DNA from: Escherichia coli
Lineage (GTDB): Bacteria > Pseudomonadota > Gammaproteobacteria > Enterobacterales > Enterobacteriaceae
Reading direction: 5' to 3' (one strand)
NCBI RefSeq assembly: GCF_003334405.1
Contig: NZ_QOWM01000003.1
Length of the DNA: 64,000 nt
This document shows, in pieces, positions 11,558 to 56,383 of this stretch (position 1 is its first letter; the number at the start of each line of letters is the position of its first letter). The notes under the pieces are model-generated. The model had not been told where the DNA came from. It did no database searches and saw nothing but the letters and a program-made list of their open reading frames with translations. Both the position numbers and the translations under genes were made by a program.

Positions 11558-12453
11558 TGCTGGAAAAATCTCTGGCAACACTTTTCGCGTTGTTAATTTT
11601 AGCAACGCTGATAAACCGTTTTCTGCTATGGCGGTTACCGGAGAGAAAAGGGGGTGAGGTTACATTACGTATTCGTACCTGGTGGGGCATCGTCATTTGT
11701 TTTTCAATGGTGATTTCAGGTCCACGCTGGATGACGTTGACGTTTTTTGCGCTGATAAGTTTTCTGGCATTGAAAGAATATTGTACGCTTATATCTGTAC
11801 ATTTTCCGCGTTGGTTATATTGGGGTATTCCTCTTAACTATTTGCTTATCGGTTTTAATTGCTTTGAGCTGTTTCTGTTATTTATACCTTTGGCTGGGTT
11901 TCTGATATTAGCCACCGGGCAAGTTTTAGTGGGTGACCCCTCTGGTTTTCTGCATACCGTGAGCGCCATTTTTTGGGGCTGGATAATGACCGTTTTCGCC
12001 TTGAGTCATGCCGCCTGGTTATTAATGTTGCCAACCACAAATATCCAGGGCGGGGCGTTACTGGTGTTATTTCTTTTGGCATTAACCGAGTCAAACGATA
12101 TTGCACAGTATTTATGGGGAAAATCCTGCGGCAGAAGAAAAGTGGTCCCTAAAGTCAGCCCGGGAAAAACATTGGAAGGTCTGATGGGCGGCGTCATCAC
12201 CATCATGATTGCGTCACTGATTATCGGACCGTTACTGACACCGCTAAATACATTACAGGCATTATTAGCGGGTTTGTTAATTGGTATTAGTGGTTTTTGC
12301 GGCGATGTCGTGATGTCAGCCATCAAACGAGATATTGGTGTTAAAGATAGCGGAAAACTATTGCCAGGACATGGCGGACTCCTTGACAGGATTGACTCAT
12401 TAATTTTCACCGCTCCGGTATTTTTTTATTTTATACGCTACTGCTGTTACTGA
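11557..12453 (+). CDS. ynbB: CdsA-like CTP:phosphatidate cytidylyltransferase paralogue
   Basis: 298 aa membrane ORF; C-terminal region resembles the CdsA signature region; translationally coupled to ynbA. Confidence 0.85.
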   Translation: MLEKSLATLFALLILATLINRFLLWRLPERKGGEVTLRIRTWWGIVICFSMVISGPRWMTLTFFALISFLALKEYCTLISVHFPRWLYWGIPLNYLLIGFNCFELFLLFIPLAGFLILATGQVLVGDPSGFLHTVSAIFWGWIMTVFALSHAAWLLMLPTTNIQGGALLVLFLLALTESNDIAQYLWGKSCGRRKVVPKVSPGKTLEGLMGGVITIMIASLIIGPLLTPLNTLQALLAGLLIGISGFCGDVVMSAIKRDIGVKDSGKLLPGHGGLLDRIDSLIFTAPVFFYFIRYCCY

Positions 12454-15541: not shown

Positions 15542-15571
15542 GATGTGGACTGAATATCTACAGTCCACATC
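15542..15571. terminator. Perfect 11-bp-stem hairpin between convergent ynbD and azoR (no clear U-tract)
   Basis: gatgtggactg-aatatcta-cagtccacatc. Confidence 0.35.
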
Positions 15572-20294: not shown

Positions 20295-20317
20295 CCCTGC
20301 TATTTGCCTGATAAAGA

Positions 20318-20351
20318 AAAAACCCGGTAAGCATTTAGCGCCGGGTTTTTT
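20318..20351 (+). terminator. Rho-independent terminator of hrpA
   Basis: Stem aacccgg / ccgggtt followed by a T run. Confidence 0.6.
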
Positions 20352-20565: not shown

Positions 20566-21366
20566 ATGAACATTACCCCGTTTCCGACGCTTTCGCCGGC
20601 AACTATAGATGCCATAAATGTTATCGGACAGTGGCTGGCGCAGGATGATTTCTCCGGTGAGGTGCCGTATCAGGCCGATTGCGTGATCCTTGCAGGCAAT
20701 GCGGTTATGCCGACTATCGATGCGGCATGTAAGATTGCCCGCGATCAGCAAATTCCTTTACTGATTAGTGGTGGTATCGGTCACTCGACAACTTTTTTGT
20801 ATAGCGCCATCGCACAGCATCCGCACTACAACACTATCCGCACCACTGGCAGAGCAGAAGCGACCATCCTGGCGGATATCGCTCATCAGTTCTGGCACAT
20901 TCCGCATGAAAAAATCTGGATTGAAGACCAGTCAACAAACTGCGGTGAAAACGCACGCTTTAGCATCGCGCTATTGAATCAGGCCGTAGAACGAGTTCAT
21001 ACGGCTATCGTTGTTCAGGACCCCACCATGCAGCGGCGCACGATGGCGACGTTCCGCCGTATGACTGGGGACAATCCCGATGCACCACGCTGGTTAAGTT
21101 ATCCCGGATTCGTTCCTCAGTTAGGAAATAACGCAGACAGTGTAATCTTTATTAATCAGTTACAAGGATTATGGCCAGTTGAGCGTTATCTCTCACTACT
21201 CACTGGCGAGCTGCCGCGTTTACGCGATGATAGCGATGGCTACGGTCCCCGCGGGCGAGATTTTATCGTTCACGTTGATTTTCCGGCAGAAGTCATCCAT
21301 GCATGGCAAACGCTGAAACATGATGCGGTGCTCATCGAGGCGATGGAAAGTCGCTCGTTACGTTAA
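20566..21366 (+). CDS. ydcF: DUF218-family protein
   Basis: 266 aa ORF with RBS aaggagg before the ATG. Confidence 0.85.
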
Positions 21367-21562
21367 AAATTGCCCGTTTGTGAACCACTTATTTGCAAAC
21401 GGGCATGACTCCTGACTTTTATTTCTGCCTTTTATTCCTTTTACACTTGTTTTTATGAAGCCCTTCACAGAATTGTCCTTTCACGATGCCGTCTCTCTGA
21501 TGATTGATGTTAATTAACAATGTATTCACCGAAAACAAACATATAAATCACAGGAGTCGCCC

Positions 21563-23002
21563 ATGTCAGTACCCGTTCAACATCCTATGTATATCGATGG
21601 ACAGTTTGTTACCTGGCGTGGAGACGCATGGATTGATGTGGTAAACCCTGCTACAGAGGCTGTCATTTCCCGCATACCCGATGGTCAGGCCGAGGATGCC
21701 CGTAAGGCAATCGATGCAGCAGAACGTGCACAACCAGAATGGGAAGCGTTGCCTGCTATTGAACGCGCCAGTTGGTTGCGCAAAATCTCCGCCGGGATCC
21801 GCGAACGCGCCAGTGAAATCAGTGCGCTGATTGTTGAAGAAGGGGGCAAGATCCAGCAGCTGGCTGAAGTCGAAGTGGCTTTTACTGCCGACTATATCGA
21901 TTACATGGCGGAGTGGGCACGGCGTTACGAGGGCGAGATTATTCAAAGCGATCGTCCAGGAGAAAATATTCTTTTGTTTAAACGTGCGCTTGGTGTGACT
22001 ACCGGCATTCTGCCGTGGAACTTCCCGTTCTTCCTCATTGCCCGCAAAATGGCTCCCGCTCTTTTGACCGGTAATACCATCGTCATTAAACCTAGTGAAT
22101 TTACGCCAAACAATGCGATTGCATTCGCCAAAATCGTCGATGAAATAGGCCTTCCGCGCGGCGTGTTTAACCTTGTACTGGGGCGTGGTGAAACCGTTGG
22201 GCAAGAACTGGCGGGTAACCCAAAGGTCGCAATGGTCAGTATGACAGGCAGCGTCTCTGCAGGTGAGAAGATCATGGCGACTGCGGCAAAAAACATCACC
22301 AAAGTGTGTCTGGAATTGGGGGGTAAAGCACCAGCTATCGTAATGGACGATGCCGATCTTGAACTGGCAGTCAAAGCCATCGTTGATTCACGCGTCATTA
22401 ATAGTGGGCAAGTGTGTAACTGTGCAGAACGTGTTTATGTACAGAAAGGCATTTATGATCAGTTCGTCAATCGGCTGGGTGAAGCGATGCAGGCGGTTCA
22501 ATTTGGTAACCCCGCTGAACGCAACGACATTGCGATGGGGCCGTTGATTAACGCCGCGGCGCTGGAAAGGGTCGAGCAAAAAGTGGCGCGCGCAGTAGAA
22601 GAAGGGGCGAGAGTGGCGTTCGGTGGCAAAGCGGTAGAGGGGAAAGGATATTATTATCCGCCGACATTGCTGCTGGATGTTCGCCAGGAAATGTCGATTA
22701 TGCATGAGGAAACCTTTGGCCCGGTGCTGCCAGTTGTCGCATTTGACACGCTGGAAGATGCTATCTCAATGGCTAATGACAGTGATTACGGCCTGACCTC
22801 ATCAATCTATACCCAAAATCTGAACGTCGCGATGAAAGCCATTAAAGGGCTGAAGTTTGGTGAAACTTACATCAACCGTGAAAACTTCGAAGCTATGCAA
22901 GGCTTCCACGCCGGATGGCGTAAATCCGGTATTGGCGGCGCAGATGGTAAACATGGCTTGCATGAATATCTGCAGACCCAGGTGGTTTATTTACAGTCTT
23001 AA
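21563..23002 (+). CDS. aldA: Lactaldehyde / glycolaldehyde dehydrogenase A
   Basis: 479 aa aldehyde dehydrogenase; catalytic Cys region VCNCAERV, ELGGKAP motif. Confidence 0.95.
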   Translation: MSVPVQHPMYIDGQFVTWRGDAWIDVVNPATEAVISRIPDGQAEDARKAIDAAERAQPEWEALPAIERASWLRKISAGIRERASEISALIVEEGGKIQQLAEVEVAFTADYIDYMAEWARRYEGEIIQSDRPGENILLFKRALGVTTGILPWNFPFFLIARKMAPALLTGNTIVIKPSEFTPNNAIAFAKIVDEIGLPRGVFNLVLGRGETVGQELAGNPKVAMVSMTGSVSAGEKIMATAAKNITKVCLELGGKAPAIVMDDADLELAVKAIVDSRVINSGQVCNCAERVYVQKGIYDQFVNRLGEAMQAVQFGNPAERNDIAMGPLINAAALERVEQKVARAVEEGARVAFGGKAVEGKGYYYPPTLLLDVRQEMSIMHEETFGPVLPVVAFDTLEDAISMANDSDYGLTSSIYTQNLNVAMKAIKGLKFGETYINRENFEAMQGFHAGWRKSGIGGADGKHGLHEYLQTQVVYLQS

Positions 23003-23012
23003 TGAGTGAAAG

Positions 23013-23036
23013 AGGCGGAGGTTTTTTCCTCCGCCT
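23013..23036. terminator. Bidirectional terminator between convergent aldA and gapC
   Basis: Stem aggcggagg / cctccgcct with loop tttttt. Confidence 0.7.
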
Positions 23037-23043
23037 GTGCGCG

Positions 23044-50333: not shown

Positions 50334-50429
50334 GGATAATATTGCAGATCGTAAGAGTATGAGATGATCTTGCGTACTGTCAGAGCACTGATTTCTCTGA
50401 CAGTACGTGCTGCGTGCAAAATCACTACA

Positions 50430-54280: not shown

Positions 54281-56383
54281 TTACTCAAATCTCCACGCAA
54301 TATTCATGCCGACACCATAATTTCGTCCGGGCGAAGGTTCGTAATATCGCCCGTTTGACTCATTGACAATGACAGAACCAACGTATTCTTTATCGAATAA
54401 ATTATCGACACGACCAAATAAATCCACAGTTAAATTGTGGTAATTGTATTTATACCCGGTGAATAAGCCGACGAGAGTATAAGACGGCGCTTTTGCCGTA
54501 TTTTCATCATCTGCCATAATATCGCCCATATAACGCGCTTCCGTGCCTGCATACCAACCATCTTCCGGTACATAACCTATCGACGCAAAGCCCATATTAC
54601 GGGCGATCCCTGGCATCCGATTACCGTTACAATCCTGTTCATTGCAAACATTGCTGCGATAGGTCGCATCAAGCCAGGTCCAGGACGCGTTTACGCGAAA
54701 ATCTCCTGCGAAACGTTGATCCCATGCCAGTTCAGCGCCTTGACGACGGGTCTTTCCGGCATTTTTGTAAGTCGTACGCCCACCGCTACTGCTATCGACA
54801 ACAATTTCATCATCAGTGTCGGTCTGAAACAATGCGAGACTAAGCAGCCCATCACCAATACGCGTTTTACTGCCGATCTCAATTGTATCGTTGGTGGATG
54901 GTTTTAAACCTAAGTTCATACCGCTTTGCCCATCAGCACGATAAGACAGCTCATTAATCGTCGGCGTTTCAAAACCTCGCCCGGCTGCCAGATAGATATT
55001 CCAGGCATCGGTCATTGCATATTTTAACGAACCGGCAGGTAGCCATTTATGATAACTGGCATCACCGCTGTCATCGCCGTTACCCGGAGTAACGTAATGG
55101 TCGTTGGAATCAAACCACACGGAGCTGTAGCGCACGCCAGCATCCAGCGACAGTTTTTCGCTCAGCTGCCACTGCGTCTGTAAATAGGGATCGATGTTCC
55201 ACATCAGATTGCGTTCGTCGCGACGCAACTCACCTTTTTGCCCGTACTCCGGCATGCCGCTATTCAGGCGGAAGTTATTGTAGCCCTTGCGGTTTTCACT
55301 CATGTTTTCGTAGTTCAGGCCGGTAGTGAACGTGACCGGAACGCCCAGTTCACCACGGTGTGTCCAGCGGCTGTCTATTCCCTGGTAATGGCGTTGCAGG
55401 GTAATCACGCCGCCCGCATGTGACGGGTTAAGTTGTGGTGCCATGGGTATTGACTGGTACTGGGTCGTTTCTCGCTCTCCGGCATACATCATCACACTCA
55501 TATCATCCCGCGAACTCAGGCTACGCTCATAGCGCAACCCAGCCTGAGTTTGCTTGATGGTTTTTCGCGTGTCGTACTGTTCTGCACGAGGCGCTTGTTG
55601 TGGATTTGCCTTCCATTCTGCTTTGGTTAGCCCACCTGGGTCATCTGCTTTGATATCCACACTATTGAAAATCAGACTTAATTTGCTGGCTTCATCAATG
55701 CGTACGCCCAGTTTGGCATTGGCTAAATTTTTCTGTGCGCCACTATGGTCACGATAGCCGTGGGTCGTAAAACGCGTGGTTGAGACGGTGTAATCGACAT
55801 CGCCAGGCTGTGTGCCGTCTCCCGTTGCGCCCGTTGCTTTCAGCCCATAGCGCCAGCTGCCAAAACTGCCGTAGTAACTACTGGCTTCAATGGTTGGTGG
55901 CTGTTGTCCGGTCTGGGTGGTGACATTCATTACCCCACCAGACGCGTTGCCATACAGGGCAGAGAAGGGGCCACGCAGCACTTCCACATTTTGCACACTG
56001 CTTAAATCGATGTTGGATGTTTGCCCTTGCCCGTCGGGCATGGTGGCGGGAATACCGTCCACATACAGGCGAATACCGCGAATACCGTAAGTGGAGCGGG
56101 AGCCAAATCCGCGAATCGACAGCTGTAAATCTTGCGCATAGTTCTGCCGGTTTTGTACCTGCAAACCAGGCACGCCGGTCAGTGATTCGGACAAGTTAAT
56201 GCGCGGTGTTGCCAGGCGCATCTCCTCGCCATCCACCACGCTTACTGCTGCTGGGGTATCCAGTTCTGAAACCACCTGCGGTGCGGCACTGACAATCATA
56301 GTCTGTTCATCAGCGGCAAAAACAACGGGGGAAAGGACAAGCAGTGCGGGCAAAACGGTCTGTCGGACGGAAAAAATCTTCAT
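54281..56383 (-). CDS. yncD: TonB-dependent outer-membrane receptor
   Basis: 700 aa; signal peptide, plug and barrel, C-terminal ...AWRFE. Confidence 0.9.
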   Translation of the reverse strand: MKIFSVRQTVLPALLVLSPVVFAADEQTMIVSAAPQVVSELDTPAAVSVVDGEEMRLATPRINLSESLTGVPGLQVQNRQNYAQDLQLSIRGFGSRSTYGIRGIRLYVDGIPATMPDGQGQTSNIDLSSVQNVEVLRGPFSALYGNASGGVMNVTTQTGQQPPTIEASSYYGSFGSWRYGLKATGATGDGTQPGDVDYTVSTTRFTTHGYRDHSGAQKNLANAKLGVRIDEASKLSLIFNSVDIKADDPGGLTKAEWKANPQQAPRAEQYDTRKTIKQTQAGLRYERSLSSRDDMSVMMYAGERETTQYQSIPMAPQLNPSHAGGVITLQRHYQGIDSRWTHRGELGVPVTFTTGLNYENMSENRKGYNNFRLNSGMPEYGQKGELRRDERNLMWNIDPYLQTQWQLSEKLSLDAGVRYSSVWFDSNDHYVTPGNGDDSGDASYHKWLPAGSLKYAMTDAWNIYLAAGRGFETPTINELSYRADGQSGMNLGLKPSTNDTIEIGSKTRIGDGLLSLALFQTDTDDEIVVDSSSGGRTTYKNAGKTRRQGAELAWDQRFAGDFRVNASWTWLDATYRSNVCNEQDCNGNRMPGIARNMGFASIGYVPEDGWYAGTEARYMGDIMADDENTAKAPSYTLVGLFTGYKYNYHNLTVDLFGRVDNLFDKEYVGSVIVNESNGRYYEPSPGRNYGVGMNIAWRFE

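Follow-up and report, generated by a model that had tools for sequence, protein, structure and literature searches.

The perfect inverted repeat lying between ydcF and aldA in Escherichia coli is, with a probability that we place at roughly two in three, an operator for FucR that brings aldA into the fucose regulon and that also supplies the 3′ hairpin of the ydcF mRNA. This assignment is made because the sequence of the half-sites, the spacing of the dyad and the distance to a CRP-like site all coincide with those of the FucR sites in the fuc region. The initial annotation had named an operator for aldA regulation as one possible function of the repeat, and that suggestion is strengthened here by the invariance of the arms, by their fixed spacing and register with the CRP-like site and by the match to FucR sites, with support that is comparative in kind.

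Position and conservation of the palindrome

The DNA analyzed, a stretch of 64,000 nucleotides referred to below as the window, carries the gene order hrpA-ydcF-aldA-gapC′, as read from its open-reading-frame list and from the RefSeq annotation of the same region. The features on which the argument draws are as follows, with positions counted in the window.

20566-21366, plus strand: ydcF coding sequence (DUF218 protein), TAA stop at 21364-21366; from the open-reading-frame list and the RefSeq annotation of MG1655 and other strains
21369-21383, minus strand: left FucR-type half-site TCACAAACGGGCAAT, with 2 mismatches in 15 positions to the FucR consensus as quoted in the literature, both at weakly conserved outer positions
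21371-21405, no strand: palindrome TGCCCGTTTG-N15-CAAACGGGCA, the proposed FucR operator dyad
21371-21409, plus strand: RNA hairpin ending the ydcF transcript, plus 4 nt; the mapped end at MG1655 1488078 corresponds to 21409
21393-21407, plus strand: right FucR-type half-site TTGCAAACGGGCATG, with 1 mismatch in 15 positions to the consensus as quoted
21410-21453, no strand: T-rich spacer from the palindrome to the CRP-like site, unconserved in sequence between genera and constant in length within 1-2 bp
21454-21469, no strand: CRP-like site TATGAAGCCCTTCACA, center at 21461.5, about −60 from the aldA start
21521-21523, plus strand: aldA transcription start, at −42 and −40 from the ATG by two sources
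21563-23002, plus strand: aldA coding sequence (aldehyde / L-lactaldehyde dehydrogenase A); from the open-reading-frame list and the MG1655 annotation

Checking of the coordinates confirmed the exact 10-bp inverted repeat first described after ydcF and upstream of aldA, with the left arm at 21371-21380 and the right arm at 21396-21405, 15 nt apart. The repeat starts at the fifth base past the ydcF stop codon, ends 157 nt before the aldA ATG at 21563, and corresponds to 1488040-1488074 of MG1655 (NC_000913.3). One such repeat is, by itself, only moderately unlikely by chance. Perfect 10-bp inverted repeats with loops of 3-20 nt gave 15 hits at 9 distinct sites in the window versus 1.3 hits per dinucleotide shuffle. 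Other perfect repeats of at least 10 bp with loops in this range lie at 1276-1308, 7364-7393, 8422-8447, 15542-15571, 42185-42223, 50373-50407 (13-bp arms) and 55513-55550. A perfect 11-bp repeat just past the hrpA stop, AAAAAACCCGG...CCGGGTTTTTT at 20317-20351, is preceded by an A tract and followed by a T tract and resembles a classical bidirectional intrinsic terminator.

What places the ydcF-aldA palindrome beyond chance is its conservation across genomes and genera. It is present in 5409 of 5426 complete E. coli genomes, in a single copy each (a median of one place per genome over 5410 genomes), and in 58 of 80 ydcF loci of other Enterobacteriaceae, which were fetched via the YdcF protein and thus blind to the palindrome. 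In these 58 loci the arms TGCCCGTTTGCG and CGCAAACGGGCA are nearly invariant and the loop and flanks are scrambled, with YdcF identity in the same relatives being only 55-73%. Among 53 distinct palindromes from other genera, six of the outer ten pairs never vary and the remaining four depart in just one or two sequences, none of them compensated; the two innermost pairs are variable, and the 10-nt center is both unpaired and variable. The 3′ terminators of aldA in the same loci served as an internal control and are unrelated hairpins from genus to genus, indicating that arms frozen in this way do not behave as an ordinary terminator does.

The palindrome also follows aldA. Where ydcF is followed by gapC instead, it is usually absent, with genus-specific hairpins in its place, and Pseudescherichia (P. 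vulneris), Kluyvera (K. ascorbata) and Superficieibacter have kept aldA with the palindrome lost or shortened. The ydcF-palindrome-aldA unit is intact amid differing surroundings (L030, L032 and other non-Escherichia loci), with hrpA upstream only in Escherichia, Citrobacter and some others and an MFS transporter or acetyltransferase gene elsewhere. No regulator gene was found next to the unit, its flanks varying by genus (MFS transporter, acetyltransferase, esterase). In Escherichia albertii (L009, about 1835-1900), aldA has been deleted and only the left arm (TGTGCCGTTTGCGAA) is left, fused to the aldA terminator hairpin (GAGGCGGAGG...). In E. coli the sequence GTGAA occurs at both of these breakpoints (compare window 21371-21385 and 23003-23040), a sign that microhomology may have mediated the deletion.

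Given these conservation data, the idea that the palindrome arose by chance, or is a copy of a repetitive or mobile element of the REP/BIME kind, is refuted in practice and retains a negligible probability. Chance alone would yield about one perfect 10-bp inverted repeat in 64 kb, and the same arms do turn up at unrelated metagenome sites, both as generic terminators and in a GC-rich repeat; those unrelated matches, however, lack the conserved T...A flanks. Like REP/BIME palindromes, this one is intergenic and close to a gene end; unlike them, it is present in a single copy per E. coli genome, is syntenic in more than a dozen genera and has no similarity to the REP consensus, and the REP elements that follow aldA in some genera are unrelated to it. 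The window holds no second copy, and none was found in enterobacterial loci totaling 1.4 Mb; no Rfam covariance model gave a match overlapping 21371-21405, even at E ≤ 10. A metagenome scan with the exact arms returned at least 120 loci, with ydcF and/or aldA adjoining the palindrome in at least 90 of them; the remaining sites among the matches listed, 30 in 29 loci, are unrelated terminators or the GC-rich repeat, so that the exact matches listed give no sign of a wider regulon. A fully palindromic 32-mer, GCCCGTTTGCGTGGGGCCCCACGCAAACGGGC, found in GC-rich metagenome contigs unrelated to ydcF-aldA (L102, L119, L122, L139, L146, L167, L174), is probably a repeat element or a terminator of another organism.

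Register with the aldA promoter and match to FucR sites

Genomes and metagenomes together provided 111 distinct ydcF-aldA sequences in which the geometry of the region was compared. The arm spacing GCCCGTTT-N16-AAACGGGC is kept in 110 of them, and the distance from the end of the palindrome to the aldA ATG is 156-163 nt, with a mode of 160. The CRP-like site is recognizable across relatives as the conserved block TTTTATGAG-N4-CTCACA, and its center lies 73-75 bp from that of the palindrome in relatives and 73.5 bp in the window. The distance from the ydcF stop to the palindrome is 5-8 nt in most genera and 5-17 nt overall, but 80 nt in the Klebsiella michiganensis group. In these alignments the palindrome is placed for aldA and not for ydcF, because it is usually gone when aldA is not downstream, and because its offset from the CRP-like site is fixed and its distance from the stop codon variable. 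The aldA start lies 42 nt upstream of the ATG according to an entry, from primer-extension-type mapping, in a table of PMC2760140 that cites Limon 1997 and Pellicer 1999; SMRT-Cappable-seq of MG1655 puts aldA's own start at 1488192, or −40 (PMC6131387, Supplementary Data 2). Counted from the aldA transcription start, the palindrome is thus centered at about −134. In Enterobacter, Lelliottia, Leclercia and Klebsiella, direct repeats of the type TGTTGC-N5-TGTAAT, 11 bp apart, occur 5-25 nt past the palindrome; they resemble ArcA-P boxes and are absent at this position in E. coli and Citrobacter (L030, L034, L040, L041, L045, L085, others).

Four candidate regions of MG1655 were first scanned for similar dyads. 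The sole suggestive match came from the fucA-fucP intergenic region, and no convincing site was found at the yqhC-yqhD, rha or glc loci. The E. coli fucA-fucP region contains two 34-bp dyads, TGACCGC-N20-ACGGTCA and TGACCGT-N20-ACGGTCA (NC_000913.3 2933879-2933912 and 2933938-2933971), along with further half-site-like sequences. The left arms of these two dyads are ccgaaaaCGGtCAtt and ttaagagCGGtCAtt, the sequences that Zhang et al. 2024 (PMC11011485) mutated in the operators OFucR2 and OFucR3, finding that both are needed for fucose induction of PfucAO and that the CRP site at this promoter is essential. In the same terms, the palindrome in the window reads TGCCCGT-N21-ACGGGCA, with N20 in most other genera, and so shares with the validated operators the half-site AAACGG[T/G]CAT and the inverted 7-N20-7 layout of 34 bp (N20 in 110 of 111 sequences, N21 in K-12). 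It is also placed upstream of a CRP site as at PfucAO. The promoter-proximal fuc dyad is 74.0, 73.0 and 74.0 bp from the CRP site, center to center, in E. coli, Salmonella and Hafnia, respectively, beside 73.5 bp at aldA. The likeness extends to pathway context, with AldA consuming a product of FucA.

The FucR consensus that Zhang et al. 2024 (PMC11011485) quote from the motif of Baumgart et al. 2021 is G(A)C(T)C(G)A(C)A(G)A(TC)A(T)CGGT(G)CAT(A)T(CG). The arms at aldA, which read aCGCAAACGGGCAtt in most genera, agree with the consensus as quoted there, including its invariant CGG and CA and the A-rich flank on one side and T on the other. When positions 2-13 of the motif are scored in each arm (24 positions in all), 28 of the 53 palindromes are free of mismatches to this consensus and 10 have one. 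A scan for dyads of this quoted consensus over the window and 196 kb of MG1655 DNA, 260 kb of E. coli sequence in all, returned only the aldA palindrome and the dyads of the fuc intergenic region, and shuffled sequence gave 0.06 hits per 64 kb. This comparison is to be read with the caveat that the consensus is degenerate and was reached after many other regulators had been considered informally. A perfect 15-nt match to the consensus as quoted, GCGAAAACGGTCATT, lies within ynbB (window 11985-11999, minus strand); it has no inverted partner and is most likely fortuitous, as 0.47 such matches are expected per window by chance.

The aldA dyad also differs from the E. coli fuc operators. It has a separate locus, 1.45 Mb away from the fuc genes; both of its arms are near consensus over 12 bp, making a perfect palindrome; it is transcribed, at the 3′ end of an upstream gene; it has N21 in K-12; and its binding by FucR is predicted. 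Its third position is always C/G, giving TGCCCG/CGGGCA, whereas the E. coli fuc dyads have A/T there, giving TGACCG/CGGTCA. This difference could be taken to mean that the palindrome is an operator for another regulator, either a DeoR-family paralogue of FucR or a postulated aldehyde-responsive factor, with FucR itself not acting at aldA, and all of the DNA-site evidence would apply equally to such a protein. However, the published FucR consensus, as quoted in PMC11011485, explicitly permits G at the variant position, and the TGCCCG variant occurs within fuc regulatory regions themselves. Both Salmonella fucP-fucA dyads (L211 1209-1242 and 1265-1298) are of the form TGCCCG...CGGGCA, as at aldA, and of the two in Hafnia (L214 1163-1196 and 1222-1255) one is TGACCG-type and the other TGCCCG-type. 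A 12-nt sequence made up of the aldA right arm and its flank, AAACGGGCATGA, also recurs exactly in the E. coli fucA-fucP region (NC_000913.3 2934004-2934015; L207 19005-19016). This copy has no recognizable partner at N20 and is possibly a further FucR half-site, going by its sequence. Nor did a second palindrome locus turn up in the 1.4 Mb of enterobacterial loci or among the metagenome matches listed outside ydcF-aldA. We therefore regard a regulator other than FucR as rather unlikely.

Several searches bear on this assignment. Among the papers searched that mention both FucR and aldA, none reports regulation of aldA by FucR; the site may already be in the data of Baumgart et al. 2021, because the minor alternatives in their consensus, as quoted, mirror the aldA arms. 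ChIP-exo supplements for uncharacterized transcription factors show nothing at the palindrome, and FucR is not among the proteins assayed there. Gao et al. 2021 list, in their supplementary file 5, a ChIP-exo peak assigned to aldA that falls within the gene itself, at about 1489340-1489386 of MG1655 (U00096.2 1487364-1487410). A literature search with the arm sequences returned only unrelated primers. In Citrobacter freundii and a Klebsiella that keep the aldA palindrome, no dyad was found within 1.5 kb upstream of fucA, which in those genomes sits in a different fuc locus of the ABC-transporter type.

Among other candidate proteins, PurR was rejected since its half-sites resemble the arms but would be in the wrong order, and CRP, CRP-S, the DnaA box, the LysR T-N11-A motif, sigma-54 enhancer sites, matS and dif were rejected on sequence or geometry. 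The layout of the dyad has counterparts among widely spaced operators of oligomeric regulators, such as GTATGA-N16-TCATAC for NikR, bioO for BirA and the 17-N16/17-17 sites of RhaS and RhaR. In these, as at aldA, half-sites are about two helical turns apart with an unconserved center; unlike the proposed FucR site, they belong to other protein families and have other sequences, and the analogy is one of geometry only.

The palindrome at the 3′ end of the ydcF transcript

Folding of the plus-strand RNA gives a 14-bp stem with a 7-nt loop (ΔG −18.6 kcal/mol, z = −5.5 versus shuffles), the stem being lengthened past the 10-bp repeat by U·G, G·U, A-U and A-U pairs, so that the loop is not, as had been supposed, long for an intrinsic terminator. 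By eye, the alignment gives the MG1655 stem one more C-G pair. Yan et al. 2018 (PMC6131387), using SMRT-Cappable-seq on MG1655, mapped a ydcF transcript that begins at 1487167 and whose 3′ end, defined statistically, is at 1488078, 4 nt past the stem. Of 60 reads starting at 1487167, 14 stop at 1488078, 12 stop within 50 bp downstream and 19 run through, with a median extension of 255 nt, and the ydcF-aldA co-transcript appears in the same list as a new operon variant (PMC6131387). In vivo, then, the 3′ end of the ydcF mRNA is marked by this hairpin, which is leaky, with about a third of transcripts reaching aldA. The end itself arises either by termination or by exonuclease trimming.

As a terminator, the E. 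coli hairpin is irregular. The displacement of the U tract noted in the initial annotation is real on the plus strand, where the tail after the stem reads UGACUCCUGACUUUUAUUU. Ahead of its first run of U stands UGACUCCUGAC, and the U tract begins 11 nt past the stem, not within the 0-2 nt usual for intrinsic terminators. A simple consensus scan for terminators and promoters called the palindrome on neither strand because no U run directly follows the stem. The suggestion of a terminator variant thus holds in that a stable GC-rich hairpin stands at the 3′ end of the transcription unit, with an in vivo end 4 nt past the stem and partial read-through; it fails in E. coli on the U tract. The Term-seq data proposed as a check differ from SMRT-Cappable-seq, as the published MG1655 tables (Adams et al. 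2021; TERMITe) contain no 3′ end at the palindrome, probably because expression is low. The supplement of Adams et al. 2021 also lists no Rho region, of the kind defined by sensitivity to bicyclomycin, at 14880xx-14881xx; under those conditions ydcF is probably expressed too weakly for this absence to weigh. A terminator on the minus strand was first suspected because AATTTTT follows the hairpin on that strand, and was rejected as this tail is unconserved in other genera. A small open reading frame encoding MTPDFYFCLLFLLHLFL (window 21405-21458), whose ATG overlaps the last base of the right arm, was likewise rejected, neither its ATG nor its frame being conserved in other genera.

These results raise the question of whether the palindrome is solely a ydcF terminator, or a hairpin that protects the ydcF 3′ end, shielding the aldA promoter from transcription that arrives from upstream, with its resemblance to FucR sites a coincidence. 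The mapped RNA end past a stable stem is what this would predict, and 49 of the 111 relatives have at least 5 T in the 8 nt after the stem, the tail of a canonical terminator, giving a U-rich tail at the palindrome in many genera. The two innermost pairs show some compensatory change, with 21 plus-strand G·U versus zero A·C pairs, and shortened hairpins survive in Superficieibacter and the locus L082. On the functional strand, the G·U and A·C pairs speak both ways: the 21 plus-strand wobbles, at the two inner pairs, stand against 3 independent minus-type changes at the outer pairs. A function in termination only, however, leaves unexplained the invariance of the 10-bp arms, given that other terminators in the same loci turn over, the fixed N16 and the 73-75-bp CRP offset alongside a variable distance from the ydcF stop, and the agreement with FucR operators on three counts, namely sequence, spacing of the dyad and distance to CRP. 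It also sits poorly with the displaced U tract and the silent terminator scan in E. coli. Compared with intrinsic terminators, then, the palindrome is alike in its GC-rich stem after a stop codon, its 3′ end a few nucleotides past the stem and its partial read-through, and unlike them in a stem that is frozen without covariation and positioned by the downstream promoter, not by the upstream stop codon. Taken as the whole function of the palindrome, termination is unlikely.

The RNA could also act as a switch for read-through from ydcF to aldA, for example if the right arm paired alternatively with a GCCCG(T)n segment farther downstream, or if a ribosome stopped 5-8 nt upstream of the stem. In the Citrobacter freundii group (L012, L016, L022, L023, L025), such a third segment, with the sequence GCCCG(T)n or CCTGCCTGTTTTTT and a T run after it, is found 10-30 nt past the palindrome; there the right arm can pair with the downstream GCCCGTTTTTT, which would give an alternative terminator of canonical form. 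Read-through is substantial in E. coli, and in most genera 5-8 nt separate the ydcF stop from the stem. The third segment, however, is confined to this one clade and is degenerate in E. coli, where its counterpart is CTCCTGACTTTT; the predicted fold always favors the 1:2 hairpin; and the stop-to-stem distance is 12-17 nt or 80 nt in several genera. As a switch of this kind would account for neither the sequence invariance nor the CRP register, we consider it very improbable.

Proposed mechanism and natural variants

Under the preferred reading of the palindrome as a FucR operator, two inverted FucR-type half-sites with the consensus ...AAACGG[T/G]CAT would form a dyad of 34-35 bp, lying about 134 bp before the aldA start and separated from the CRP site downstream of it by 74 bp, equal to 7 turns of the helix. 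FucR, the DeoR-family activator of the fucose regulon, would bind this dyad when loaded with L-fuculose-1-phosphate. By analogy with the fucAO promoter, the bound FucR and CRP (at about −60) would cooperate from the same helix face and raise aldA transcription, so that we take both the binding at aldA and activation as its direction from the fuc sites. In aerobic fucose catabolism the step directly following FucA is that of AldA, which would be made during fucose breakdown to oxidize the L-lactaldehyde that FucA releases. It is also known that lactaldehyde from rhamnose cross-induces the fuc regulon, as FucA condenses lactaldehyde and DHAP to fuculose-1-phosphate, and by this route AldA would also be made when rhamnose-derived lactaldehyde condenses back to fuculose-1-phosphate.

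We know of no regulator identified so far behind the induction of aldA by fucose, rhamnose and hydroxyaldehydes. Work by Limon and colleagues in 1997 reportedly found aldA to be induced by hydroxyaldehydes and 2-oxoglutarate through a regulator whose identity was left open, and to need sequences upstream of about −119; this could equally speak for the regulator other than FucR weighed above. A FucR dyad, together with the re-synthesis of fuculose-1-phosphate, would explain both the hydroxyaldehyde induction and the need for DNA beyond about −119. The dyad thus provides a concrete candidate regulator for aldA, one that would enlarge the small FucR regulon and, if true, would explain through fuculose-1-phosphate re-synthesis why sugars that generate lactaldehyde induce aldA. 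The enzyme handles L-lactaldehyde and glycolaldehyde and is heavily used in the engineering of ethylene glycol, glycolate and propanediol pathways. A module of FucR dyad, 74 bp and CRP site would, moreover, be common to the fucAO and aldA promoters and recur in several genera.

Because two near-consensus inverted half-sites amount to a perfect palindrome of 10-12 bp, transcripts from ydcF would fold the operator into a stable hairpin, which would form the 3′ end of most ydcF mRNAs and let about a third read through. The hairpin may have been recruited as a 3′ structure for ydcF, or may at least be tolerated there. A near-consensus palindromic operator that acts in this way as the 3′ hairpin of the gene before it calls for caution in terminator annotation. 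A further step, which we find conceivable but doubtful, is that one 34-bp sequence is used twice, as DNA for a FucR operator and as RNA for a leaky ydcF terminator, with bound FucR acting as a roadblock or altering termination. If so, fucose would set both the activity of the aldA promoter and the read-through from ydcF into aldA.

Natural variants of the region bear on the spacing between the dyad and the CRP-like site. A 13-bp tandem duplication (CTTTTATTTCTGC) in the spacer, at about 21411-21423 of the window, is carried by 540 of 5426 complete E. coli genomes (~10%), for example strain M21816 (L002 655-790), and changes the distance between dyad and CRP-like site by 1.2 helical turns. A fixed spacing is therefore not an absolute requirement, and this allele offers a ready test of its role. 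In the clinical E. coli strain 720632, an IS600 element (IS3 family; L005 2715-3871, window ~21470) is inserted between the palindrome/CRP region and aldA.
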